Of a stretch of DNA of 64,000 nucleotides, positions 49,951 through 64,000 are shown piece by piece. Position 1 is the stretch's first letter, and every line of letters starts with the position of its first letter. The stretch is from the NCBI GenBank assembly GCA_049513715.1, contig JBEKVV010000002.1, positions 1 to 64,000 on the forward strand. The letters are read 5' to 3'. Origin of the DNA: Candidatus Bathyarchaeia archaeon. Its GTDB lineage: Archaea; Thermoproteota; Bathyarchaeia; 40CM-2-53-6. The translations under genes and the position numbers were made by a program. The notes below the pieces were generated by a model. The model had not been told where the DNA came from. It made no database searches and saw nothing but the letters and a program-made list of their open reading frames with translations.

Positions 49951-50165
49951 AAAACGCCGGCAATAGGCGAAGGAAAGAAAAAGAAGAGATAGTCGACTCC
50001 GATTTCAAGTCTGTAAGCCAATTGCAACAGCCTTACGCCAGTCATCTTCGCCGCTCTTCTAGCGGACGCAGTCCTGACGGTTGCAGTACTTGTGAAGTCA
50101 AAATGCAGGACTCAATCAAGCCCTCTCTAACCGGGAGGCCTACAGACGATTTTGGGACCGAACTC

Positions 50166-50564
50166 CTACCATGTTCTTGTGAGACCTCTAACTTTGTCAA
50201 ATGCTCTGTCTGTGGATACAACCGACCCATCCAATTGCATGGCCTCGGCCGCAATGCCTGCGTCGAAATACTCAAGGTCTGTTTCTTCCTCGAGTCTTGA
50301 CGTCATGTAGAAAGTGGAAGGACTGAGTTTCGCGACTTTTCGGTCTATAAGGGGATAGTCTCGTAGGAGTAAGGCATATTTCTCCATTCTCTCCTCGAAT
50401 GTGAAGCCTCTACTCTTCAAAGTGATATCGAATTCGAAGAGTGCGAAGGCGCCCAAGTAAACTTCTTGTTCACCCACTAGCTGCAGATGCTTCTTAGCGC
50501 GCTCATGGTGTTTATCGTTCGAATCTGCGGTAGCGAAGAGAACAACCGTATCCAGAACGGGCAA
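50166..50564 (-). CDS. vapC: PIN-domain toxin
   Basis: VLDT, E, YFDA, VSTDRAFD. Confidence 0.88.
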   Translation of the reverse strand: MPVLDTVVLFATADSNDKHHERAKKHLQLVGEQEVYLGAFALFEFDITLKSRGFTFEERMEKYALLLRDYPLIDRKVAKLSPSTFYMTSRLEEETDLEYFDAGIAAEAMQLDGSVVSTDRAFDKVRGLTRTW

Positions 50565-50789
50565 CTAGTTTTTCCTTCGGAATATGAAGCGTGACGCTTC
50601 ATGTCGTTCTTCCTTAAACTCAAATCCTGTTAGGCTAGCCGTGAATTTGCGGTCACCTAGTGCTACTAGGATCACGCCCCCTTTGAAGGGAATAGCGACA
50701 AGTCTATCTCCCTTGTTGATGCCTGCGACTTTTCGTGTCTTCTTGTCGAGAACGACTCTACACTTGTCGTCCAGTGCGACTTCGCCCAA
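50565..50789 (-). CDS. vapB: AbrB-type antitoxin
   Basis: LDDKCRVVL.K..RK..GI..GD; abuts vapC. Confidence 0.8.
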   Translation of the reverse strand: MGEVALDDKCRVVLDKKTRKVAGINKGDRLVAIPFKGGVILVALGDRKFTASLTGFEFKEERHEASRFIFRRKN

Positions 50790-50906
50790 GCGTCATCTAG
50801 TTTAGAGGTTTGCTGTCCCACATATTAGGCATATTTCCCACCATGGTGAAGAACAATCTACATAATTGCAGATTGCAAAGAAACCGCAAGGCAAACCAAA
50901 AAGGGT

Positions 50907-51042
50907 TGGCGCCGGGGGGTGGGATTTGAACCCCCTCAGTTCCTGTGCGGGGCTGGATGAACACCCGATGTTCGTTGTCTTCGACAGCACCGTCCCTGGA
51001 CAATCAGGTTCACCTGCTAAGCTACGGCAATCACGCACTAAA
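50907..51042 (-). repeat. int(N)/att module A ending in tRNA-Ser 3' end
   Basis: TTTAGT box, TTG 51003, MSRDGAVEDNEHRVFIQPRTGTE, GGGGTTCAAATCCCACCCCCCGGCGCCA. Confidence 0.8.
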
Positions 51043-51095
51043 CTCTTAGGTTCAAATCTGCCCGACTGAGACGACAAACACGAAAACGGATGAAA

Positions 51096-54000
51096 CTAAA
51101 GCCTATGGAGTGCTGCTTCCGCTTTCTCTAGGTCTCTTTTGGCGCCAAGCTTTCTGAAGATCTCAACTGCCATCTCGAGGTGTCTTCGGGACTCGGCGGG
51201 GGATGCTTTCGCGATTGCTTCCGCATATTCAACTAAGGCTTTGGCGCGGTAGTATGGCCAACCAGCCTTCTCCCACAGGTTAAGAGATTCCAAGTATTTT
51301 TCTTCAGCAGCCTTCCGGTCGCCACGCGCGAACAGGACGAGGGCTTCAGCTTGTGATGCCATAGCTAAGCCCGCATCACTCTTCAACGTTTCAGCCAGCC
51401 GCCTAGCCCACTCAGACATTTTCCGAGTCTCCTCCCATCTCCCGCCTTTTGCGTGGAGCGAAGTTAGCTGAAGGAGGGTCTCGACGTGGAGCAAGGGTTC
51501 CGTGGTGAATTCCCAATTCCTGAACGCGTCCACGGATTTTTCGAAGTGTGTTCTGGCTTCCTGTTCTTTGCCCTGTTCCAGCCTCAGTAATCCTAAAGCT
51601 AGGTTTGTGGTCACGATGACGGTGATCTTGGGGACTTTTTCGGTCAGGTGCTCGGCTGCTTGAAGAATTTTCTCAGCCTCTCCCAAGTCTCCCATGCTCA
51701 GGGCGTACCATCCTCTCCAGGCTTCGTGTTCGACTGTGGTGATGTCGATTCCGATTCCCAGTCGCTCCATGATCGCGTCTGATTTCTGGAATTGTTCCAA
51801 AGCGCTCGCCCAGTCTCCTCGAAGCCAGTCGAGGACCGATAACCACCACAAGCCTCGTGCCTCCGAAGTCATCAGGTTTGCGCTCTTGGCTAGTTCGACG
51901 GCCTTCAGGGCAAACTCACGTGCCTTCCCTAAGTTCCTAGGGTAGGTGTAGAAGCTCAAGTTGAAGACGCAATTCCGCGCTACCAAAAGGTCTTCGTGCT
52001 GTAAAGCTAGCTCGTACGCTTGATGCCAGAGCGGCAGACCTTCATCAATTTTCCCTGTGTCAGTTAGGTAAGACCCTTGCATGCTAAGTGCGCCTGCTAC
52101 GGCTTGGGTGTTGTTCGTCTTCTTCCCCACTTCTAGAGCCTTCTCAGCCCACATGTTTGCCTCATCAAATTGATCCATGAGCCCAAGAAACCATGCCAGT
52201 GAATAGTAGGTCGAGGCTGCCTCGGAGCTATCGGGTTCGCCCTGCAGGTAATTGAGGCCACGCTTCATGACGATCGTAGCCTCTTGAGCACCCGGTTCGC
52301 TCTTCACGGTGGTGATCGCTTCGGCGATTTCCCTGCATGTTCGTGCGCATGCCTTGTTATCATGTGATTTTTCGAAGATTGAGAGCGCCTGTTCATAGGA
52401 TTGTGTACTGTTCTTGAGGTGGCCAGTGAACGCGTAGCATGCACCTAGCTTCTCTAACAAGGTTGCTGTCTCTCCTGCTTTCTCTCCTTCGAGGTCGAGG
52501 AGCTCCACTGCCCGTCTGTAGTCTTTGATCGCGGGCTCGTAAGCGTAAATTGATTTGTTCAAGTCGCCGGCAATAACTGAATACTTGATGCAGCGCTCTA
52601 TGTCGCCGCCTTCCGAGAAATGGTTCGCTATGGCTTCGGCATGCCTGTCCAACTTCTTTGAGTAGAGTTTCTCCATCGCCTCGGCAATCTTGAGGTGATA
52701 CCTAGCTCGCTTGATTTGGATCAAGTCGTCGAGCAACATCTCTCTGATCCGATTATCCGAAAATCTGAACTTGCTCTTCTCACGGGGAACTTCGACGACC
52801 AAGCCCTGAGAAATAACTGCTTCCAGCCTTTGAACCAGTTGATCTTCAGTCGCCTTCGATACTTCCAGAAGAATTTCGAAGTCAAATTCGGGGCCAATCA
52901 CGGCGGCCCAAACCAGTACACCCAGAGTGTCAGGCTCTAACTTTGACAGCCTCGACCTCAACGTAGATTTTACGCTCTCAGGAACAACAATCTCCTGAAT
53001 CGGTTTTCTGTCCCAACCTCCCTCGGTGCGGAATATGGTACCGTCCTCGACAAGTGAACGGAGCACTTCTTCTACGAAGAAGGGGTTGCCGCCGGTTGTC
53101 TTGTGAATGATATCTGTAAACTCCGTGCTTACCTGTTTTTCTCCGAAGATCCGGTCGATGAGTTCGACTGTATCCTCCTGCCTTAAACTCTTGACCGGCA
53201 AGCTCTCAAGAAGCCTATCCCTGTTGAGTTTCGCCAACATCTTATGGATTGGTGTGTCGGGCCCAGCATCTTCGGTTCGATACGTGCAGACTACCAAAAC
53301 TCGAAGGTTGCCCGTACTCCTCACGAAATACTCGAGCAGATCAAGCGACGCTTGATCAGCCCACTGCAAGTCATCGAACAGAAGAAGGAGTGGCGTTTCC
53401 TTAGAGATGGATGTTAGAAAATGGGTTATCGACTCGAAGAGCCTGATCCTGTCCTGCTGTTCGCCGAGCGGCTTAGACGGTGGAACAGTTCCAATTTTGG
53501 CCGCTATATCTGGCACTAGCCTAGCAAAATCTGAAACGTGCGTGCCCAGCATCCTACGAATTAGCTCGCCAGGAGCCTCGCCGATGTACTCGCGGCTCAC
53601 TTCGACCCACGGAGCGTATGGGATCCTATCCTCAGATCCTCTTCCCACTAAAACGGTCGCATCCCTCGACCGCGCGTACGATGCCAATTCGCGCATGAGA
53701 CGGGTTTTGCCTACGCCGGCTTCACCGTGGAGTGCTACTATGGATGATTTGTTGTTGAATGCGTCGTCGAGGGCGCCTTTGAGCTTCGAAACTTCATCCG
53801 TTCGGTTCACAAGGGGTGTTAGCCAACGAGGTTCCCGGAAGGCAACGGTAGGAATCGACGCCTCCTCGCTTGGAGCATATTCGAACATTAACTCAGTAAG
53901 CCCAAGTTCCTTTTCAGTTACGGTTATTCCTTGCATCCATTTTACGAGAAGTGATTTCTTTTCCCCTTCTTCGACGATTTCCAGATTACCGTCGAAGAGC

Positions 54001-54542
54001 CCTACAACGGCTTGGACTTCCTCGTCGGCATGCATGTGCGGATTGAAGACAGCCAGCGTCGTTATGTTCTTCGCTCGTAAGCGTTCTAGGAGCTCAGTCA
54101 ACCATTTTCGAGTTTGAAGAGCCTTATGTCGAAGCAGAACATCAGACAAGATATCCAGCACTACACGCTTAGGTTGAACCGAACTTAGTGCGTCGGTTAT
54201 CTGGAAGTTCACGTCAGTCAGATTGTCAATCCCCTTACCCGGGATCACGTTCTTGGAAGGCGGAACGGGCTTGTCGCTGCAAATAAGTGAACGCTCATAT
54301 TCCATCTCAGTCGGCACGATAGACTGGGCCGAGGATAGCGTTCGACAGATCAGCAGGCTAGATTCCTGAACGCCCTTGAGGAAATTCCGCAGCAGAACCG
54401 GAACCTCGTCGCTTGCGGCAGCGTTCAGCACAACCATAGAACCAGCAAGAAAACCGCCCTGTAGAGCCTCATCCAGCCTACCGTAACCCGTCGAAACCTT
54501 AGCCCGTAAGGTAGGACTGATCGAAGCCCCTTCGTTAGTCAA
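51096..54542 (-). CDS. Multidomain signalling protein: degenerate KaiC/RAD55 domain + STAND-like AAA ATPase + TPR repeats
   Basis: STGYGRLDEALQGG with eroded Walker A; GEAGVGKTRL, LLFDDLQWAD, TGGNPFFVEE; long TPR array. Confidence 0.88.
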   Translation of the reverse strand: MTNEGASISPTLRAKVSTGYGRLDEALQGGFLAGSMVVLNAAASDEVPVLLRNFLKGVQESSLLICRTLSSAQSIVPTEMEYERSLICSDKPVPPSKNVIPGKGIDNLTDVNFQITDALSSVQPKRVVLDILSDVLLRHKALQTRKWLTELLERLRAKNITTLAVFNPHMHADEEVQAVVGLFDGNLEIVEEGEKKSLLVKWMQGITVTEKELGLTELMFEYAPSEEASIPTVAFREPRWLTPLVNRTDEVSKLKGALDDAFNNKSSIVALHGEAGVGKTRLMRELASYARSRDATVLVGRGSEDRIPYAPWVEVSREYIGEAPGELIRRMLGTHVSDFARLVPDIAAKIGTVPPSKPLGEQQDRIRLFESITHFLTSISKETPLLLLFDDLQWADQASLDLLEYFVRSTGNLRVLVVCTYRTEDAGPDTPIHKMLAKLNRDRLLESLPVKSLRQEDTVELIDRIFGEKQVSTEFTDIIHKTTGGNPFFVEEVLRSLVEDGTIFRTEGGWDRKPIQEIVVPESVKSTLRSRLSKLEPDTLGVLVWAAVIGPEFDFEILLEVSKATEDQLVQRLEAVISQGLVVEVPREKSKFRFSDNRIREMLLDDLIQIKRARYHLKIAEAMEKLYSKKLDRHAEAIANHFSEGGDIERCIKYSVIAGDLNKSIYAYEPAIKDYRRAVELLDLEGEKAGETATLLEKLGACYAFTGHLKNSTQSYEQALSIFEKSHDNKACARTCREIAEAITTVKSEPGAQEATIVMKRGLNYLQGEPDSSEAASTYYSLAWFLGLMDQFDEANMWAEKALEVGKKTNNTQAVAGALSMQGSYLTDTGKIDEGLPLWHQAYELALQHEDLLVARNCVFNLSFYTYPRNLGKAREFALKAVELAKSANLMTSEARGLWWLSVLDWLRGDWASALEQFQKSDAIMERLGIGIDITTVEHEAWRGWYALSMGDLGEAEKILQAAEHLTEKVPKITVIVTTNLALGLLRLEQGKEQEARTHFEKSVDAFRNWEFTTEPLLHVETLLQLTSLHAKGGRWEETRKMSEWARRLAETLKSDAGLAMASQAEALVLFARGDRKAAEEKYLESLNLWEKAGWPYYRAKALVEYAEAIAKASPAESRRHLEMAVEIFRKLGAKRDLEKAEAALHRL

Positions 54543-54643
54543 ATTCCCAGACGCCTAAACCCACCTAGTCTTCAGCCCGCCCAAAATAGTTACGGTCTAT
54601 CGCAACCCAAGCTTATCTTCGTCCCACTGAGGGAGGGGAACTC

Positions 54644-54889
54644 ATGATTCTCTGTAACAAGTTCGGTTTCGTCAAAGTTAGACAAAAAGGCAGTCATATA
54701 GCACTGGAACGGGATGGAACATTCGTCACAGTACCAGTGAAGGAAATTCGGGCGGGTCTCCTAAACAGAATTCTAAGAGATTGCAACATAGGTAGAAACG
54801 ATTTTATCGAATCTTGGCAATACTTAATCGAATTAGTGGCGAACCCCAGCGCGTACGCTAAGAAAGCTGGCGCCGGGGGTGGGATTTGA
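54644..54889 (+). CDS. hicA: HicA-like mRNA interferase, orphan, possibly degenerate
   Basis: GFVKVRQKGSH..VTVP..EIRAGLLNRIL; no adjacent hicB. Confidence 0.75.
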   Translation: MILCNKFGFVKVRQKGSHIALERDGTFVTVPVKEIRAGLLNRILRDCNIGRNDFIESWQYLIELVANPSAYAKKAGAGGGI

Positions 54890-55003
54890 ACCCCCGTGGT
54901 TTTCCCTGCTTGACTGGATGAACTCCGGAAGTTTGTCAGGGCGCGAGCCGTTCTCGTCGATCAACTAAACTCACGCTTCACTAATCGCATATCCTACACT
55001 AAA
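54868..55003 (-). repeat. int(N)/att module B ending in tRNA-Ser 3' end
   Basis: TTTAGT box, TTG 54964, MIDENGSRPDKLPEFIQSSRENHGGSNPTPGA. Confidence 0.8.
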
Positions 55004-55068
55004 TGTTTAGGTCAACATCGGACAATGTTGAGGTCAAATTCCTGTGCGCCAGCTGAGCCGACGGCGAC

Positions 55069-56433
55069 TTATTTCGTGAGGCCACACTGTCTCCTGAGTT
55101 TCTCCACGAGTTCTAGGTATCGGGGGTCGGCTCTTGCCTTGGCGAGGAGTGGCGAGTACATCATCGTTGAGGGAGTTATCGTATGGGCTTCGAGAGCCTT
55201 GTTCAGGTGCTCGAAGTATGAGTCGAGGTCTCCGAGGGCATGGTAGACGTACGCCATGAAGTTGAAGCCGACAGGCCCCATCTTGGCGTCCTCAATCTTC
55301 TTGACAGCGAGCAGCGCTTTCTCTCTGTTGCCCTCCCAAGCGGCGAGCATTCCTCCCATCCAGATGATCCGAGAATTGGTGGGATCGAGCCTCTCGACCT
55401 TTGAATGGAACTCCCTAGCCTTCTCCAAGTTCCCCTTGATCAGGTAGTACTCCATCATGCCCCTGTAGGTGAACGCCGGAGCCATCTGCTCGGTTGTACC
55501 CCAAAGCTCTAGCGCCTCCTTCTCCCTCCCGACCCAGAGGTATGTCGTCCCGAGAAGCCAGATCAATCTGGGGCTGATGGGGTCCAAGCGGTAGGCAGCC
55601 TCAATCTGTTTCACCATCTCAGCCGGGTCTCCTTTTAGTCCAGCTATTTCGGACAGCAAGCGATGGGGGGTTGGGAGGCTGGGGTTGAGTTCCAGCGCCC
55701 TTCTCGCCTCCGCCTCCGAGCCCGGCACATCGTCCTCGGTGAATAACATGTTCGAAAGCGCCGCGTGAGCCTCCGCAAGGTCAGGGTCGAGGTCGATGGC
55801 ACGCGGCACTGTTGACTTCACATTTGAGAGGGAGACGTCAGCGGGCTCGTAGCCACCGTCACCAAGCAATGTGTGGCACTCTCCAATCTCTACGTACGCT
55901 CTCGCGAACTTGGGATCCAGCTCTATGGCCTTCTCGAAGAGGCCTATGGCCTGTCTGGCTGAGGCCGCGGTGGCCTCCCTTAACAGTTCCCTGCCCCGGA
56001 GAAAGTTGTTGTACGCCTCGATGTTCTCGGTAGGCTTCTTCTCCAGGGTTCTCTTCTCAGAGTCGAGGAGCTGTGTTCTGAGTTCTCCTGCGACTTTCTC
56101 CGCTATCTCGCTCTGGACGGCGAAGATGTCGTCCAAGTTCTTGTCGTAGTGGGAGGACCAAAGGTGTTCCTCGGTGGCTGCGTTGATTAACTGGACTGTG
56201 ACTCTGACCCGGTTTCCCGCTTTCCTTACGCTACCTTCTATCAGAGATCCGATATTCAGTTCCTTTCCTACCTCCGAGGCTCCCTTCTGAGAACCCTTAT
56301 ACTTCATCACCGACGTTCGAGCTATGACCTTCAGACTCTTCACTTGGGCAAGCCTGTCAATCAGCTCCTCCGTCATACCGTCTGCGAAGTATTCATCATT
56401 CGGATCGGGGCTCATGTTTTGCAGCGGCAACAC
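55069..56433 (-). CDS. TolB-N-like + TPR protein (tail of cyclase-associated type), probably 5' truncated
   Basis: RIAVLPLQNMSPDPNDEYFADGMTEELI..VIARTS..EGSVRKAGNRVRVTVQL..DIFAVQSEIA; no upstream catalytic domain. Confidence 0.85.
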   Translation of the reverse strand: MLPLQNMSPDPNDEYFADGMTEELIDRLAQVKSLKVIARTSVMKYKGSQKGASEVGKELNIGSLIEGSVRKAGNRVRVTVQLINAATEEHLWSSHYDKNLDDIFAVQSEIAEKVAGELRTQLLDSEKRTLEKKPTENIEAYNNFLRGRELLREATAASARQAIGLFEKAIELDPKFARAYVEIGECHTLLGDGGYEPADVSLSNVKSTVPRAIDLDPDLAEAHAALSNMLFTEDDVPGSEAEARRALELNPSLPTPHRLLSEIAGLKGDPAEMVKQIEAAYRLDPISPRLIWLLGTTYLWVGREKEALELWGTTEQMAPAFTYRGMMEYYLIKGNLEKAREFHSKVERLDPTNSRIIWMGGMLAAWEGNREKALLAVKKIEDAKMGPVGFNFMAYVYHALGDLDSYFEHLNKALEAHTITPSTMMYSPLLAKARADPRYLELVEKLRRQCGLTK

Positions 56434-56668
56434 GGCGATCCTATGCTTGTCAAGCGTTGCCTGAGTGTGAGAAAATGCCGGAGGAACGAAACTCTTCGAG
56501 CGAGCAGGGTCGATTGGTTGGAAGGGTCGTCACTACTCCTGGTGTGCTGCTACTTGATAGCAAACCACCAGAATATTGGTTTTCATGGATGCGGCCGAGG
56601 TTGCTGAGGGAACATAGAATTTCCCGAAGAAACTCAATGCTGCGAATGAAAATCGCGGGTTCGGTCAG

Positions 56669-56845
56669 TGGCGCCGGGGGTGGGATTTTCACCCCGTGGG
56701 TGTGTCCGAAACACCCCACGGCTGGATTTGAACCCCCCGCACTTTTTGTGCTTGGCTGGATGAACACCGGATGTTTATTGTTGGATGAGCTTTTCTCGTC
56801 GGACAATCGGTTCACGAACGAACATAGTGCATATCTTGGACTAAA
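56669..56845 (-). repeat. int(N)/att module C with 41-bp hairpin insertion in the tRNA-Ser 3' end
   Basis: TTTAGT box, TTG 56806, MSDEKSSSNNKHPVFIQPSTKSAGGSNP; GGATTT duplicated at 56683 and 56724. Confidence 0.8.
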
Positions 56846-56854
56846 CTCCTCTGG

Positions 56855-57508
56855 TCAGTCCTCGATTGCCACTACTCTTACCGGGGCGCCTGTTACTCCT
56901 TTGACTTTCAGAGGGAGAGCTATCAACTTGAACCGTGTTTTGGAAAGCGCTTGTAAGTTCACCAGTCCATTAATGTACGGTATTCCATTCCGGAGCAGAA
57001 TCTTGTCCGGAATCAATTCAGTCGGTGGAATGCGGGGGTCGCAAAACAGAGCGACGTCACCTGCGACAAGTTTCACCTTGCGTTCAACCAGCCATTGAGC
57101 AGCCTCATTGGACATATGCGGCGTATTCGACACATAATCTTCCGACCCCCAATGGCTCTCCCAACCCGTTCGAACCAGTGCAATGTCTCCCTTCCCAATA
57201 TTCGACCCTATGCGGTCGAAGTCTTCAGGGGTTAAGCAGCTCAGCGGTTTTCCTTTGTTTTTGAAATCAAGCAATTCTGCCTCTCCCATGAGCAAGTCCA
57301 GCGGTAATTCAGAGCTTCGCATAGAACCTACGAAGAAATGCGATGGTGCGTCTATATGTGTGCCAACATGATCTGCGATGACGATCTTGTATGCGTCGTA
57401 TCCAATCACCCCGATCTCAGCGATTCTCTCAATCTCAATCGGGGGAAACGGCGAACCATACGTCCAGGCCCCAACCGCAATCTCTCCTGAGAGATCAATG
57501 ATTTTCAC
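56855..57508 (-). CDS. Cyclase family (kynurenine formamidase-like) metal hydrolase
   Basis: IIDLS, HVGTHIDAPSHF, LVRTGW, LPLK..GAPVRVVA; GGAGG SD before GTG 57508. Confidence 0.9.
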   Translation of the reverse strand: MKIIDLSGEIAVGAWTYGSPFPPIEIERIAEIGVIGYDAYKIVIADHVGTHIDAPSHFFVGSMRSSELPLDLLMGEAELLDFKNKGKPLSCLTPEDFDRIGSNIGKGDIALVRTGWESHWGSEDYVSNTPHMSNEAAQWLVERKVKLVAGDVALFCDPRIPPTELIPDKILLRNGIPYINGLVNLQALSKTRFKLIALPLKVKGVTGAPVRVVAIED

Positions 57509-57721
57509 AGAGACTAACCTCCAAGCAAGAACTGCGTTCCAGCACATTAAAAGAGATTGATACTTCGACTGGAGTGGCGTTACGTTTCGCGGAGAATAAT
57601 TACGAATTACGTAACTGTTGACGCATCCAACATTAGCAATACGTAGAGTTGGGTTCCAATTTGCAAGGCAATCGAAATTGTCAAATACTAGGCCCCAAGC
57701 TGACTCCAACAGGGATTTCCG

Positions 57722-59329
57722 GTGAGCTCGGAAAGGTCTGAGGTTTTTGCGAGAAAAGCTAGCGGTCTTGTACGCCATGCGTCGTGGTTTGATGGGTTCC
57801 TGACTAGCATTGGTACTATGAACATGATTTGGATTGGTGTTTCCTTCATCTGGGCCCTGTCCCTGTTCCCTGGATCGTACTTTGACGTCTCCATAATCCT
57901 AGCCACCGTCCTATGCCTCTTCAACGCCGTTCTCTTCGCGCAGTTCTCCTCAATGATGCCTCGCTCTGGCGGAGATTATGTTTTCAACAGCCGTGGCCTG
58001 ACGCCCAGCCTCGGCTTTTCCGTGAACTTCAGCATGGTCGTCTGGAACCTGTTTTGGATCGCGTACACTTCCTGGATCTTAAGCTCCGTATACGCCTCAT
58101 CAGTCTTCACAATAATTGGCACAGTCCTGAAGTCAGACTACTGGACCGCGTTGGGTACACAGGCTGCGCAACCTCTCGTATCCTTCATAATTGGCGCCAT
58201 AGTCGTCTTGTTCATCGGCTTCATCACGTTCATGGGCCTCCGCCCGTTCTTCAATGTCATGAAAGTAGCCTTCGTCATCGGCATGATCGGAATCTTCGCA
58301 CTCATCTTCGTCTTGGCCACCTCGTCCCAACAGGCGTTCGTAAACGCCTTCAACGGATTCGTCGGTCCCGGCGCCTACGATTCGGCCATTAGCACAGCAG
58401 TCAAGAATGGTTACACGGCCGGGACGAGAAATTGGACCAACACAATCATGGCAATCGCAATCGCCTTCCAGCCACTCGGCTTCTCGGTTTGGTCATCATA
58501 CATCTCCGGCGAGATTAAGGACGCAAAACGATTCAAAACCAACGCACTCTCGATAGTTGGCAGCCTAGTCGTGATGGCAGTCTTCCTTCTGATCTTCTGG
58601 TATCTGTCCGTGGCGGTCTTCGGCTACGACTTCATGGGCGCCACAGGCTTTCTCTTCTACAACGCTCCAAGTGCATCTCCACTCTCGATTCCTCCAAGCA
58701 CGAATTTCTTCGGTTCACTCTTGGCACCAAACTTGACCTTGGATTTGCTGATTGGAATCGGTTTCCTCGCATGGGCTTTCCTCTACGCGCCGCAATCAAT
58801 GCTCATGGTTAACAGGTGCATGCTGGCTTGGACAATCGACCGACTCGCGCCGAAGAAATTCGGAGAAGTGAACTCACGCTTCCACACGCCAACATACGCA
58901 ATCCTACTATCAACCCTTCTCGCACTGGTCTTTCTAGGTGTCTTCGTTTTCACAACGGGCTGGTTCTCAATCTATGGGTTCAACGCCTTCATAGGTGGCG
59001 GAACGATCACTTTCATAGCAGTAGGAGTCGCAGGAATACTCTTCCCATACAGGAAATCCACCAAAGACATCTTCAAATCCTCCCCAGCCAACCAACGCGT
59101 ACTCGGCATCCCGGTAATGACAATCAATGGAATCGTAACGGTTCTCTTCATGAGCTTCGTAACAATCCTTTACCTCCTACCATGGAGTGGAGTCAACACC
59201 GCTCCTTCAGTCGGGTTCATCGTCTTCCTGTACATACTGGGATTCGTTTGGTACTATGCAACAAGGGCTTATCAGAAGAGAAAGGGTGTCCCGGTAGAGC
59301 TAGCCTTCAAAGAGATACCGCCGGAATAG
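57722..59329 (+). CDS. APC-family amino acid/amine permease
   Basis: FARKASGLVR, MPRSGGDYVFNSR, SGEIK, FKEIPPE. Confidence 0.92.
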   Translation: MSSERSEVFARKASGLVRHASWFDGFLTSIGTMNMIWIGVSFIWALSLFPGSYFDVSIILATVLCLFNAVLFAQFSSMMPRSGGDYVFNSRGLTPSLGFSVNFSMVVWNLFWIAYTSWILSSVYASSVFTIIGTVLKSDYWTALGTQAAQPLVSFIIGAIVVLFIGFITFMGLRPFFNVMKVAFVIGMIGIFALIFVLATSSQQAFVNAFNGFVGPGAYDSAISTAVKNGYTAGTRNWTNTIMAIAIAFQPLGFSVWSSYISGEIKDAKRFKTNALSIVGSLVVMAVFLLIFWYLSVAVFGYDFMGATGFLFYNAPSASPLSIPPSTNFFGSLLAPNLTLDLLIGIGFLAWAFLYAPQSMLMVNRCMLAWTIDRLAPKKFGEVNSRFHTPTYAILLSTLLALVFLGVFVFTTGWFSIYGFNAFIGGGTITFIAVGVAGILFPYRKSTKDIFKSSPANQRVLGIPVMTINGIVTVLFMSFVTILYLLPWSGVNTAPSVGFIVFLYILGFVWYYATRAYQKRKGVPVELAFKEIPPE

Positions 59330-59390
59330 AGCACTATTCATCTACTTCCGGCGTATTCCAGACACCTAGCCGACCCTGTGTAGCCGACAA

Positions 59391-60398
59391 TTGGAAGGTG
59401 GGCTGCAGCGAACATTGAGCGTGAAGCCTCTAGCATTTGAGACGGGAAAGAAGAGAATCAGGCTGTACTACACATCAGACGTTCATGGCTCAACTACTTG
59501 CTTCAAGAAATTCCTCAACTCCGCCAGAGCTTATGAGGCTGACATAATCATCTTGGGTGGCGATCTCTCAGGCAAACTGATCATCCCCATCTTCAAGGAA
59601 GGCCCTGACAGCTACTCTGCGAAGTTCCAGGAACGTCACGTTACAGTTAGTGGAGAACTACAGCTGAAAGAGCTTCTGGCGAAAATCCGTTTCACCGGCT
59701 CATACTACGTCATCCTCGAAAGAGGAGAGGAATCCAAGTTCGCGGCGGAAAGCGAGCGGGAAAAACTCTTCGCGCAGGTTCTCATGGATGCAATTCGTGA
59801 ATGGGTGCAGCTCGCTGAGGAACGCCTCAAAGACTCAAAAACAATATGCCTCATCATGCCCGGCAACGATGATCCGATGGATATAGATTCAATTCTCAAC
59901 GGAAGCTCGCGAATAGTGAACCCGGATGGCAGATTAATCACTATAGACGGGACCTATGAAATGGCAAGCACCTCTTTCGGGAACATAACGCCTTGGAGTT
60001 GCCCAAGGGACATACAAGAAACTGAGCTTGAAGCTAAGCTGGAAACAGCCTGTGCCGCCATCAAATCTCCACAGACTGCCTTGTTCAACTTCCACGTTCC
60101 GCCCTATGATTCAGGATTAGACTTGGCACCGAAGCTGGATGCGAATTTGAAGATCGTAACCGAAATGGGACAACCCGTGATGATACCGGTCGGAAGCCAC
60201 GCAGTCAGAGAAGTCATAGAGAAATACCAGCCACTGGCTGGGCTTCATGGTCACATTCATGAATCAAAAGGCACAACCACGATCGGCCGAACCTTCTGCG
60301 TTAACCCCGGCAGCGAATACGCCGAAGGGCTCCTACATGGCGCAATCATGGACATTGAGAAAGGCAAACTCCGAAATTACGTGCTAACACAAGGATGA
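59391..60398 (+). CDS. Calcineurin-like metallophosphoesterase
   Basis: SDVHG, GGD, PGNDD, HVPP, HGHIHES, NPGSEY. Confidence 0.92.
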   Translation: MEGGLQRTLSVKPLAFETGKKRIRLYYTSDVHGSTTCFKKFLNSARAYEADIIILGGDLSGKLIIPIFKEGPDSYSAKFQERHVTVSGELQLKELLAKIRFTGSYYVILERGEESKFAAESEREKLFAQVLMDAIREWVQLAEERLKDSKTICLIMPGNDDPMDIDSILNGSSRIVNPDGRLITIDGTYEMASTSFGNITPWSCPRDIQETELEAKLETACAAIKSPQTALFNFHVPPYDSGLDLAPKLDANLKIVTEMGQPVMIPVGSHAVREVIEKYQPLAGLHGHIHESKGTTTIGRTFCVNPGSEYAEGLLHGAIMDIEKGKLRNYVLTQG

Positions 60399-61327
60399 TC
60401 ACAATGAAGTTATTCTACGTAACCGACATTCACGGGGCTGAGATATGCTTCCGGAAATTCTTCGCTGCCATCCGCGAGTACAAAATCGACGTAGCTCTCC
60501 TGCTAGGCGACCTCTCCGGAAAAGTGACAGTTCCAATCCAGAAGAAGGACGAGACATACACGTGCAAAGTTCTAGGCTCGGACCTCGTAGCCCGAAATGC
60601 CACCGAGCTAGCTGACCTGCAAGCGAAAATTGCCAACATAGGGTACTACAGCTACGTAGCCTCCCCACAAGAGGTCGAGGAAGTGTACAAGAATCCTGAG
60701 AAGAACGACGAGCTATTTCAGAAGCTCATTATCGAAAGGCTGCAACGCTGGATGCAAGTCGCAGACGAGAAACTCCGAGGCTCAAAAGTCAAGGTCTACA
60801 TTGGGGCTGGGAACGATGACCCGTTCGCCATTGACCCCGTGCTGGATCGTTCAGACCGGGTTACAAACATGAATGAAAGGTTAATCAATATTGAAGGTTA
60901 CGAAGTCATTACCACAGCCTTCTCAAACCCAACCCCATGGAACACGCCTAGGGAGTGCAGCGAGGGGGAGTTGGGCAAGAAAATCGAAGAACTCGCCAGC
61001 AAGGTCACTAGGATGGAGACGGCAATATTCAACTTCCACGTCCCGCCCTACGGATCACTACTCGACAATGCACCAGAACTGAAAGACCTACAACCAGTCG
61101 CAGGTTCCGTTGTGAACGTGGGTAGTACTGCAGTTGCAGAAGCAATTGAAAAACATCAACCCCTGCTCGGGCTTCATGGTCATATTCATGAATCAAAAGC
61201 AGCACAGAAGATTGGAAGGACCCTGTGCGTTAACCCAGGGAGCGAATACTCAGACGGAATTCTACGCGGCGTAGCCGTCAATCTTGAAAATGGCAGAATC
61301 AAGAACTACATTTTCACATCTGGCTGA
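60395..61327 (+). CDS. Calcineurin-like metallophosphoesterase (tandem paralog)
   Basis: TDIHG, LGD, AGNDD, HVPP, HGHIHES, NPGSEY. Confidence 0.92.
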   Translation: MITMKLFYVTDIHGAEICFRKFFAAIREYKIDVALLLGDLSGKVTVPIQKKDETYTCKVLGSDLVARNATELADLQAKIANIGYYSYVASPQEVEEVYKNPEKNDELFQKLIIERLQRWMQVADEKLRGSKVKVYIGAGNDDPFAIDPVLDRSDRVTNMNERLINIEGYEVITTAFSNPTPWNTPRECSEGELGKKIEELASKVTRMETAIFNFHVPPYGSLLDNAPELKDLQPVAGSVVNVGSTAVAEAIEKHQPLLGLHGHIHESKAAQKIGRTLCVNPGSEYSDGILRGVAVNLENGRIKNYIFTSG

Positions 61328-61354
61328 GCAACATCAAATCACGGTTGAGAACCT

Positions 61355-62116
61355 ATGGAATATCGAGCAGATTTGATGAGTTGGGCGGATTTCCAACGCG
61401 CCGTCAACCAAAACCGTCTGGTAATCCTGCCCATTGGTTCCCTGGAGCAGCACGGCCCACATCTCCCCCTTGGAACTGACACGATCACAGTACGGGGGTT
61501 AGCAGATCGTGTCGCAAAGCGGACGCGCGGAATTGTTGTTCCAGAAATCAGCTACGGGTTCAAACCCCAACCAGGGTCCTCCGCCGGCAACAATTTCCCG
61601 GGAACCTGCAGCCTAGACGGTTCAACCCTTACAATGCTGGTCAGAGACGTAGTTCGCGAACTTGTCCGGCACAAAGTCCGGCGGATTTTGATTCTAGACG
61701 GTCACTATGAGAACGCGCTGTTCATCAACGAAGGTGTAGACTTGGCGCTAAAAGATCTATGCATGCCAAAGCGCGTCAAAGTAGTGATTGCGAGGTGGTT
61801 TGAACTAATTCCTGCTAGTTTCTTCATGAAACACTTCGGGAAAGACTTCGAAGGCATGATGTACGAACACGCGTCCAAGGTTGAGACCTCAGTGATGATG
61901 GCCTTGAACCAAAGGAGCGTTCAGAAAAACCGAATGAAAAATGACAGGCCCATTAGAAGGGAGAACTACACGGTCCTACCCGAAAGCAGCGAATTCATCC
62001 CGAAATCCGGCGTCCTGTCCTCCGTCTTTCCATCCTCAGCGAAAATTGGTGAAGAACTCGTAAATTACGCCGTCAGGGAAATCGTCAAGATTGCCGGGAA
62101 AGAGTTTCCTGAGTAG
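61355..62116 (+). CDS. Creatininase (creatinine amidohydrolase) family protein
   Basis: EQHGPHLPLGTD, FPGTCSLDG, GHYEN, EHA..ETS, SGVLS. Confidence 0.92.
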   Translation: MEYRADLMSWADFQRAVNQNRLVILPIGSLEQHGPHLPLGTDTITVRGLADRVAKRTRGIVVPEISYGFKPQPGSSAGNNFPGTCSLDGSTLTMLVRDVVRELVRHKVRRILILDGHYENALFINEGVDLALKDLCMPKRVKVVIARWFELIPASFFMKHFGKDFEGMMYEHASKVETSVMMALNQRSVQKNRMKNDRPIRRENYTVLPESSEFIPKSGVLSSVFPSSAKIGEELVNYAVREIVKIAGKEFPE

Positions 62117-62127
62117 GTCGCGGAAGC

Positions 62128-63747
62128 CTACTCAGGTGGAAGTTCTTTGAATGCCTGGTTGATGTCGACTCCTCTTCGTTTCTGATACGCAGCGTTGACA
62201 AAGTACCAGATGGCGCATACGAGGAGAATTCCCGCTGTGTACACGATTGGCACTGGTGCATTGTAACCCAGTTCGGGGGCCGTTAAGTAAACTGCGACTA
62301 GAGAGCCGCTGGCGATCGCCGCTAGGACTCCAACTACGGTGATTAGAGGAACAGGGCCTACTTTGTAACGGCTCATCGGTGATGCTTCGAAGGTTTGCCG
62401 GCGCCTCTTCCAGAAGACAATCGCCGCCAGTGAGGTCACAAACACCACCCCTGTGGGGCCTGCTACGGCTCCAACCGCAATGACAGAGTAGAACGGCGGC
62501 CAGAAGTCGAACAGGTAAGCTGCGACTAGGCTGACTGCGAAGCACAGAATTGTCGGTTTTATGGGTGTGTGAGTTCGCGAGCTAACAGAACCCATCCACG
62601 CCGGTAGCATCCTGTCAAGGGACATCGCGATCCAGATTCTTGTGACGATAACGAATTCGCTTGCTGCAATGAAGAACCCGCCAGCAATCAATCCCAAGGA
62701 GACCAGTACAATGAGAACAGGGTTTGTGGTCAGCATTGACACCAAGAGGCTGACAGTGGGGTAGAAGGGCACGACACTGTTGGGCAAGTAGTATGCGTTC
62801 GCAATTCGGTTCAAGAAGTCCCATCCGACTACACTCGTGAATAATGCAATCGGGACGAAGAGCGCAATCCACTGAAGGTAGAGGCCTGCGGCAGAAAATG
62901 ACAGGAACAACCGCTTGAAATCGTTAGCCCGTTTCACCTCTCCTAGAATCCCAGTCGACGCCCACATCGTCCAAGCAATGTAAATGCTAAGAACACTCAT
63001 CAGGAGGAATGTGTTCCGCCAGCTGAACGCTGGGACAACGTAACCGGCAGTAGTTGTTGCTTGAACTATGGCTTCGTACAGGTTCTGGCTTCCCATCAAA
63101 TTGCCCCAATAATTGAACGCACTATGGAAGCTTTGGCTATTCGCGCCAGCCAGGAGATAGATCAAAACTATGTTTGTGATTAGGGTGAAGGGGAACAGAA
63201 TCCACCGCTGGCTTCGAATCCACCACTTCAAAGGCACAACGGTTACAACTAACGAAAGTATACCCGTAATTACGGAAGCAGCAAACTGTCCGGTCGGAAT
63301 CTGGAGCCAGTTCGCCCACCCTATCAATGTGCCATTATTCTGGAGGGTGCCGATTAGGAGGAACACGGGGGCAAGGCCGAGGCTAGCAATTACGTAACCT
63401 CCGAACGCCACGAAGGTAGCAATCCAGATTACCGTGAACCAGCCCAACGGAAAAATCACGCCGATAGCTGGATGCAGGATTCTGCTTTGGTACACGTAGT
63501 CGCCGCCGGCTCTGGGCATTGATGACCCGAGGCCTGCATAGAGTGCATACAGCGGAAGCATAACGAGTAGACAGAGAGCAATCGACCATCCAAGGTCAGC
63601 GCCTGGCAGGTAGTATTGCGCGTAGGGCATGAAGTAGAACAGGAGGTAGAACCCTCCGGAGCCTGCAATGCCCCACCACGCGACATCGAAAAGCGACATC
63701 TCTCTGACAAGGCCGGATGATTTCCGTCGGAAAAGTTCCTGAGTCAT
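62128..63747 (-). CDS. APC-family amino acid/amine permease
   Basis: FRRKSSGLVR, MPRAGGDYVYQSR, GEVK, DRMLP, FKELPPE. Confidence 0.92.
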   Translation of the reverse strand: MTQELFRRKSSGLVREMSLFDVAWWGIAGSGGFYLLFYFMPYAQYYLPGADLGWSIALCLLVMLPLYALYAGLGSSMPRAGGDYVYQSRILHPAIGVIFPLGWFTVIWIATFVAFGGYVIASLGLAPVFLLIGTLQNNGTLIGWANWLQIPTGQFAASVITGILSLVVTVVPLKWWIRSQRWILFPFTLITNIVLIYLLAGANSQSFHSAFNYWGNLMGSQNLYEAIVQATTTAGYVVPAFSWRNTFLLMSVLSIYIAWTMWASTGILGEVKRANDFKRLFLSFSAAGLYLQWIALFVPIALFTSVVGWDFLNRIANAYYLPNSVVPFYPTVSLLVSMLTTNPVLIVLVSLGLIAGGFFIAASEFVIVTRIWIAMSLDRMLPAWMGSVSSRTHTPIKPTILCFAVSLVAAYLFDFWPPFYSVIAVGAVAGPTGVVFVTSLAAIVFWKRRRQTFEASPMSRYKVGPVPLITVVGVLAAIASGSLVAVYLTAPELGYNAPVPIVYTAGILLVCAIWYFVNAAYQKRRGVDINQAFKELPPE

Positions 63748-63793
63748 AACGTCTCAGGTGTTTGTTGGCCTGCTCAATCTGTAAAAGACTTTC

Positions 63794-63905
63794 GGCTCTA
63801 TCTTACGGATTCCGAAATGAGGCTCTATCTTACGGATTCCGAAATGAGGCTCTATCTTACAGATTCCGAAATGAGGCTCTATCTTACGGATTCCGAAATG
63901 AGGCT
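63794..63905. repeat. 27-bp tandem repeat, 4 copies plus 4 nt
   Basis: GGCTCTATCTTACGGATTCCGAAATGA at 63794, 63821, 63848 (one G to A change) and 63875. Confidence 0.95.
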
Positions 63906-64000
63906 GTTGACTGGATAACCCTGCAACCAAGCCACGGCGGAAAGCACTGTCGAGGTTTAGTAAGGCCTACGCGCAATTGCAAAACTGAACTAACTTGGCA

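Follow-up and report, generated by a model that had tools for sequence, protein, structure and literature searches.

Suicidal integrases carry their attachment site (att) inside the integrase gene. The accessible text of PMC8371274 names only those of SSV, pTN3 and pT26-2 as suicidal, and infers a single origin for them, in a PF16795 group. In bacteria, cis-mobilizable elements (CIMEs) keep att sites without integration genes and are stacked by later arrivals, a process termed site-specific accretion in the available part of PMC5704250. Here we describe three related modules on the minus strand of a 64,000-nucleotide stretch of DNA (the window; G000:C2:1-64000), where G000 is the source Bathyarchaeia genome, an assembly of 11 contigs. 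Judged by their sequence, the modules are int(N) halves, that is N-terminal parts, of a split tyrosine integrase gene, in the frame that encodes FIQ. We think it probable that the intervening blocks of genes, which lack an integrase, were stacked as units at a tRNA-Ser(GCT) gene and moved by the intact integrase of another element.

As in SSV1, pT26-2 and pTN3, att lies inside the integrase gene and tRNA 3' ends are targeted. The SSV-type elements also have int(N) and int(C), the C-terminal part, at opposite element ends, an att read in alternate frames, and an excision that would need integrase in trans, and the family described here shares these features. Unlike the SSV-type, it has an int(N) of only 10-30 codons, and it carries PF00589 without PF16795. 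The split gene is sense to the tRNA, whereas the SSV1 and pT26-2 integrases are antisense, as read from their records. The Bathyarchaeia split family commonly stacks 2-5 units, whereas suicidal tandems are unobserved, apart from one hybrid case, according to the accessible part of PMC7253208.

Each module consists of an upstream arm, about 24 codons of int(N) and a displaced tRNA 3' end. The features of modules C, B and A are:

56806..56845, minus strand: module C upstream arm, with a TTTAGT box (56845-56840) and a GTGA Shine-Dalgarno-like motif (56815-56812)
56735..56806, minus strand: module C int(N), TTG start, 24 codons (LSDEK...HPVFIQPSTKSAG)
56669..56734, minus strand: module C att core, T-arm to CCA of tRNA-Ser(GCT)/Pro(TGG), intron-interrupted
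56686..56726, minus strand: module C tRNA T-loop intron, 41 nt, at position 59/60, with a canonical bulge-helix-bulge
56657..56668, minus strand: int(C) 5' stub after module C, LTEP (FTEP in relatives)
54965..55041, minus strand: module B upstream arm, TTTAGT at 55003-54998 and GTGA at 54974-54971
54893..54964, minus strand: module B int(N), TTG start, 24 codons
54868..54892, minus strand: module B att core, T-arm to CCA
51004..51042, minus strand: module A upstream arm, TTTAGT at 51042-51037 and GGTGA at 51014-51010
50933..51003, minus strand: module A int(N), TTG start, with the T-loop one base nearer to it than in B and C
50907..50932, minus strand: module A att core, with one extra C

A reading made from the sequence alone (the sequence-only reading) had proposed three minus-strand modules with a constant spacing of box and TTG, a shared FIQ frame and a tRNA 3' end, and all of these are present. 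The boxes start at 51042, 55003 and 56845 and the TTG codons at 51003, 54964 and 56806 in A, B and C, that is, 39 nt from box start to TTG in each, and the TTG frame encodes ..FIQ.. in all three. From the TTG to the CCA ends (50907 in A, 54868 in B, 56669 in C) there are, inclusively, 97, 97 and 138 nt. The earlier counts of 96, 96 and 96+41 for this distance hold, and the additional 41 bp are the intron of module C. The equal spacing of module A, however, is the net result of one base fewer (71 rather than 72 from TTG to GGTTC) and one C more after the T-loop.

The tRNA end CCCACCCCC(C)GGCGCCA occurs in 3 copies in the window and in none of 200 mononucleotide shuffles; ARAGORN identified no whole tRNA in the window. 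A nucleotide hidden Markov model of the module recovered 9 copies in G000 (E <= 1.6e-32; next match E 0.0037), the same 9 copies on which it was trained. The module was found in 15 of the 22 other genomes of the genus and in none of 18 genomes outside it. The modules are mutually 61-76% alike. A start codon is present at -72/-71 in 45/64 modules (36 TTG, 6 GTG and 3 ATG), and none of these 45, which are related rather than independent copies, has a stop within 23 codons. In an earlier set of 33 aligned modules (38 minus 5 without an anchor; again related copies), the FIQ frame has stops in 3, vs 5-22 for other frames. Because TTTAGT is no more than moderately conserved (an exact match at -39 in 9/45 modules, with GTGA in 23/45), we treat the box as a putative promoter. 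Two other frames were rejected as int(N): one displaced by a single base (..CSSSQA..GVQIPP), as the start codons and the G002 junction described below are both in the FIQ frame, and an antisense SSV-like frame (GFEPP), which has stops in 12/33 modules.

The identification of the modules as halves of an integrase gene comes from relatives in which both halves can be rejoined. Full int(C) genes lie immediately after tRNA genes on the same strand and have their start in the T-arm, and int(N) and int(C) were identified at opposite ends of tRNA-integrated elements in G003, G014 (two), G016, G019 and L162. In G002, a 23.9-kb element (G002:C42) has a module at one end and a full int(C) at the other, and its 24-bp direct repeat matches the core in the window exactly. 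Its right end is the same module as in the window, and in silico joining gives, from a TTG at -72 and in the FIQ-type frame, a tyrosine integrase of 341 codons, which bears out the earlier proposal of a split integrase. Overall, 7 of 9 attL/attR pairs gave a single open frame of 326-354 codons when the arm was joined in silico to int(C). These junctions sit at Leu, Arg, Val and Ser/Pro-type cores, and att is read in all three frames.

The int(C) proteins match PF00589. Catalytic residues R144, K169, R240, H263 and Y272 are invariant in 16 int(C) rows, with the first H mostly replaced by K. A structural model of int(C) (predicted local distance difference test score, pLDDT, of 86) has a XerA/lambda-type fold, with a Foldseek match to XerA at E 9.7e-13. 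The integrase is likely split by its own integration into a tRNA gene.

Behind module C lies a short beginning of int(C), PPPAPLTEP (PPPAPFTEP in relatives). Both module C and a fourth module, D, carry int(C) stubs, and stubs behind modules in relatives translate as the integrase start. The statement of the sequence-only reading that no int(C) follows any copy thus holds for a full int(C), of which no cognate copy was found in G000, and fails for the stub behind C. Full or frameshifted int(C) genes were also seen at the head of defence-like islands (L134 in G013:C16; L133/L085 in G003 and G002) that contain genes of restriction-modification, SMC/Mre11-like and HerA-like types, judged from open reading frames (ORFs) only.

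A tRNA-Ser had been predicted beyond position 64000. We identified an intact tRNA-Ser(GCT) with a D-loop intron at C2:77.4 kb (end at C2:77367), on the same strand as the modules, and modules A-D all lie downstream of it. Module D is outside the window, at C2:72118-72310. The spacing is tRNA - 5.3 kb - D - 15.4 kb - C - 1.8 kb - B - 4.0 kb - A, followed by vapBC. Because the module 3' end is common to tRNA-Ser(GCT) and tRNA-Pro(TGG), the 'Ser' label of the array rests on position. An int(C) behind the cognate tRNA-Ser had also been expected; it is found in a relative, G161, where a tRNA-Ser(GCT) is followed by a full int(C).

The stack can be explained by repeated integration at one tRNA-Ser, as had been suggested. 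A circle carrying int(N)-att-int(C) would recombine near the T-loop, restoring the tRNA. Each arrival would push older units downstream, giving the order tRNA-E1-D-E2-C-E3-B-E4-A-vapBC (E1 to E4 being the units), with module A therefore the oldest. Each new int(N) would land in front of the previous int(C). If that junction were full and in frame, the enzyme would be rebuilt and excision would follow, so that survivors should have an int(C) stub or an out-of-frame int(C). The same fate is expected for junctions of new int(N) and old int(C) in the accessible part of PMC7253208. In 34 metagenome loci, which were chosen by a pattern requiring a stub, 0 of 37 modules have a full int(C) behind them. 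Behind the G002 module is the start of an older int(C), both truncated and out of frame, and the stubs end at many lengths, up to ~120 residues. Units without int(C) would keep both arms and, as their sharing between species suggests, could be remobilised in trans.

Arrays of relatives differ in unit number and content. The 29 att-to-att intervals are 281-15,398 bp long (median 2.3 kb). A pattern search for the Ser anticodon arm reached 7/23 genomes only, as introns and variants break the pattern. Three att-bounded units are shared between species at raised identity, and together with the variable number and order of units this agrees with what the sequence-only reading expected of relatives. 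A 0.8-kb unit with one gene is the first unit behind the tRNA-Ser in G018 and an inner unit of a tRNA-Pro island in G020; the two copies are 88% identical, vs 65-67% for flanking genes. The vapBC unit of G000 is 85-87% identical to that of G020 from att onward, against a background of 65-72%, and the G020 copy follows an att scar of the tRNA-Pro type. Another five genomes of the genus have less similar vapBC copies (69-75%), and the loci returned for these show no att of this type. A KaiC-TPR unit occupies the first place in G000 and the second in G020, and the G000 copy has 78-84% identity to those of G015/G020 (background ~70%). The left ends of all three units coincide with att, and two of the three occupy a different array position or tRNA island in the other species. 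At most a stub of int(C) is present at these left ends; the integrase-less form itself therefore seems to have travelled. On this good but indirect evidence, integrase-less units probably move between species.

Several observations weigh against a mobile, integrase-driven array. The background identities were taken from partial loci rather than whole genomes, and the identity of the 0.8-kb pair falls inside int(N), as homologous recombination would give. The start codon is missing in 19/64 modules, and pN/pS, at 0.82-0.99 across all six frames, did not separate them and gives no sign of selection on the amino acids of int(N). No open frame was obtained for 2/9 attL/attR pairs. A full cognate int(C) was not found in G000, only a 39-residue piece (C2:375.1-375.3 kb), which does not supply the integrase in trans that had been supposed for this assembly. 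The predicted A/B or B/C excision junctions were absent, and depth was flat, in contigs of 4/24 listed runs; contigs drop rare variants, the 4 runs may be the assembly source, and the part between tRNA and D was outside the read check. Three joints were seen in these contigs, none of them between two modules. One joint touching att B, with a 21-base side, was set aside as a repeat artefact. Two intact integrases of G000 (C5:218.6 kb and C1:532 kb) were rejected as the trans enzyme on family-profile E values of 0.018 and 3.1 and long branches. The first, of 319 aa, is behind a tRNA-Leu (C5:218.6-219.5 kb). In the G000 assembly, then, the array looks dormant.

This dormancy would also be expected of a frozen graveyard, in which full elements arrived with int(C) and shrank in place, and integrase-less units never move again. 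The lack of a cognate int(C) and of an excision joint in G000 would fit such decay, as would stubs of many lengths (up to ~120 residues) and the absence of stops in int(N) (0/45), which is compatible with a gene intact until arrival; in bacteria, accretion has been described beside decayed elements (PMC5704250, in the part available). We nevertheless judge this explanation unlikely, given that different species have the same int(C)-less left ends, with an identity of 78-88% where the background is 65-72%, and in positions or tRNA islands that differ.

Alternatively, the ~170-bp modules and tRNA ends could serve as substrates for homologous recombination by the host, or larger islands could be transferred, which would explain such sharing with no integrase acting on single units. 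The drop in identity inside int(N) of the 0.8-kb unit points in this direction, and recombination of related elements is the model for hybrid suicidal integrases in the accessible part of PMC7253208. However, the left boundaries of shared units fall at the 20-25-bp att core, and the modules are only 61-76% alike. A length of 20-25 bp is short for RadA-type recombination, and we regard this explanation as quite improbable. A role as expressed 3' halves of split tRNAs, or as a family of tRNA-derived non-coding RNAs with their own promoters, might be suggested by the fixed box spacing, the CCA end and the intact bulge-helix-bulge in module C. It is highly improbable and largely refuted by the in-frame joining of the upstream part to int(C). 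Moreover, the intact tRNA-Ser(GCT) is present, the tail is degenerate in 32/64 modules, the T-stem is mismatched (GGGGG/CCCAC), and Rfam gave no match of note, either to tRNA-Sec or to a known RNA family. We favor stacking of integrase-less units that are likely moved by an integrase supplied from another element.

Among bacterial systems, CIME accretion is, by analogy, the closest counterpart to this stacking. As in the CIMEs described in the available part of PMC5704250, integration genes are lost, att sites are kept and later arrivals are stacked on top; four att-to-att intervals contain no integrase or replication genes among the ORFs scanned. Unlike in those CIMEs, each boundary here is half an integrase gene with a promoter arm and a start codon.

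The array also works partly like an integron but is not one. Integrons, including archaeal ones (10.1101/2022.02.06.479319, accessible part), likewise have small att-bounded units that are newest at the head and vary between relatives. In contrast, there is no resident integrase here (no integrase, and thus no IntI-type enzyme beside an attI, was identified at the G000 array), the sites are tRNA ends and probably not attC, and the largest unit is 15 kb. The integron integrase model TIGR02249 gave a score of 62.7, vs a cut-off of 265, short of IntI-type identity. A further step would be an integron-like gene collection based on a suicidal integrase of independent origin, in which integrase-less cassettes with the promoter and start codon of the integrase circulate among Bathyarchaeia, dock at tRNA-Ser/Pro and activate a resident int(C) when they land in frame. 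Arrival would then trigger reshuffling, frame mismatch would freeze the array, and swaps would add or remove the T-loop intron. We consider this scheme doubtful.

The sequence-only reading had assigned the split integrase to the SSV1 type. We conclude that it is not of the SSV family because of its sense orientation, its Pfam matches (PF00589 without PF16795) and its profile scores. PF16795 (Phage_integr_3) had no match at E <= 0.1 in 3 int(C) proteins, and none over the cut-off in 5 genomes. Only SSV1, and not the split family, matched phrog_5127. The hhalign probabilities were 0.6% for SSV1, 0.3% for pT26-2, 0.3% for pTN3 and 87.6% for pNOB8. BLASTP to SSV/pTN3/pT26-2 returned only pieces of 15-44 residues (E >= 0.93), short of family-level similarity (30% identity over 60% of length, per PMC8371274). 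The family profile gave 284-384 bits on 20 intact CxxC-rich integrases, 0.1 on pT26-2, -0.8 on SSV1 and no score on pTN3. This comparison with split integrases took in SSV1, pT26-2 and pTN3; NitEve-E3 is a further element reported with a split integrase, in the accessible part of PMC6563490.

The nearest relatives are intact integrases of Bathyarchaeia viruses and islands, which we label 'zinc ribbon' for their CxxC..CxxC N-terminus. They have the same C-terminal 290 residues (31-51% identical to the split family), keep an N-terminus of 100-200 residues, and lack a T-arm within the gene in 9 of 9 viral loci. The tree has 16 split and 21 intact rows, intermixed on an unresolved base, and SSV1 has a branch of 4.5 (the root is unsure, and outgroup branches are long). 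The tree gives 3 changes for the split forms, and a single origin of these forms (1 change) is also compatible. The integrase family occurs in 59/151 genomes of the class, and 46/46 genome loci are Bathyarchaeia; together with a homologue that bears this name, they place the host in Bathyarchaeia. Among 30 family loci inspected, 16 are intact, 6 start in the T-arm and 8 are of neither clear kind. Each of these 9 viral loci holds an intact integrase gene; the module pattern had 0 matches in viral contigs, and a scan of single viral proteins found none. As the nearest kin are intact Bathyarchaeia integrases, not the PF16795 group, a second, independent origin of suicidal integrases is likely on these comparisons. 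Our literature search, which mostly excluded subscription papers, returned no description of split integrases in Bathyarchaeia, and the accessible parts of PMC10848311 and PMC3718332 do not cover this family.

Introns at position 59/60 of the T-loop were identified in 9/64 att cores. The bulge-helix-bulge of the module C intron, by inspection of the sequence, has a 4-bp helix (TTCA/TGAA) and two 3-nt AAT bulges; in the minimum-energy fold the intron stem is paired and the bulge-helix-bulge itself is not. Relatives of this intron are 41-46 nt long and occur in 8 listed modules. Head tRNAs of relatives occur both with and without 59/60 introns. Module C has an intron that its head tRNA lacks, as would be expected if the right half of att derives from the previous element. 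An att swap would carry T-loop introns into and out of the tRNA gene. Exchange of att bringing introns into tRNA genes has been proposed for Caldiarchaeum, where, in the accessible part of PMC3293823, the intron gain through integration is one case with a pNOB8-type element and a D-arm intron, whereas the 59/60 introns recur here. Splicing of the integrase message could serve as a frame switch. With the intron unspliced, module C int(N) is in frame with the int(C) stub (56450-56815); the 42-nt introns of relatives are open in another frame. Two more 59/60 T-loop introns were seen in G000 (C5:22176-22234 and C1:340142-340212), of which one is 97% identical to the module C intron and in another scar, and one is in a tRNA-Leu gene.

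The units carry the following cargo, and G000 has further modules elsewhere:

55069..56433, minus strand: TPR protein of 454 aa, cargo of unit C-B; similar units precede modules in relatives
54644..54889, plus strand: orphan hicA, whose 3' end runs into att B; no adjoining hicB
51096..54542, minus strand: KaiC-like + AAA_16 (STAND) + TPR protein of 1148 aa, cargo of unit B-A
50140..50906, minus strand: fifth unit, beyond module A, with a vapB-like gene (50565-50789) and vapC (50166-50564)
56855..64000, no strand assigned: window part of the 15.4-kb unit D-C (cyclase, permeases, metallophosphoesterases, creatininase), which extends to module D
C4:240380-240560, C5:160180-160520 (two), C3:523960-524140 and C3:159920-160030: five further G000 modules, distant from any intact tRNA

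The TPR, HicA, STAND(AAA_16)-TPR and PIN (vapC) assignments of the sequence-only reading were correct. A 1152-aa homologue of the unit B-A protein lies between the tRNA-Ser and the module in G016. The vapC product of the fifth unit is a PIN protein, and unit D-C is a block for amino-acid catabolism and transport. Stabilisation of the array by toxin-antitoxin genes, which had also been suggested, finds no support, since hicA has no neighboring hicB (HicB matches in G000 are only distant, at C2:340 kb and C5:26 kb) and vapBC is itself an att-bounded passenger unit. PADLOC gave no defence-system call beyond generic TPR/NTPase pieces.

In the first unit (L001:10313-15174), an IS6-type transposase with a SWIM finger and an aspartyl-protease-like gene break up a KaiC-like/TPR gene; G015 has an uninterrupted 692-aa version of the broken gene. 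KaiC-like/TPR and STAND-TPR genes are repeatedly directly upstream of int(N) (window 51096-56433, L037, L047, L048, L050 and L051). A tandem 27-bp unit in five to six copies (63767-63928) lies between a permease (62128-63747) and a dehydrogenase gene. The cores of the five further G000 modules are mostly degenerate, and the C3 and C4 copies are near contig ends, beside the same helicase-like fragment. G000 also contains other families of att scars with different left arms (e.g., C3:427310-427390, C5:206500-220150 and C3:153914).

For work on mesophilic archaea, a compact integrase that targets tRNA genes could prove useful as a tool. Whether integration moves tRNA introns can be tested directly on the att cores, some of which carry 59/60 introns and some not. 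Stacks that were reported as unobserved are common here, and each of their junctions shows what stabilises them, namely a stub or a frameshift. If suicidal integrases did arise a second time, matched intact and split relatives would be at hand for studying how, and for what reason, att comes to lie within an integrase gene.

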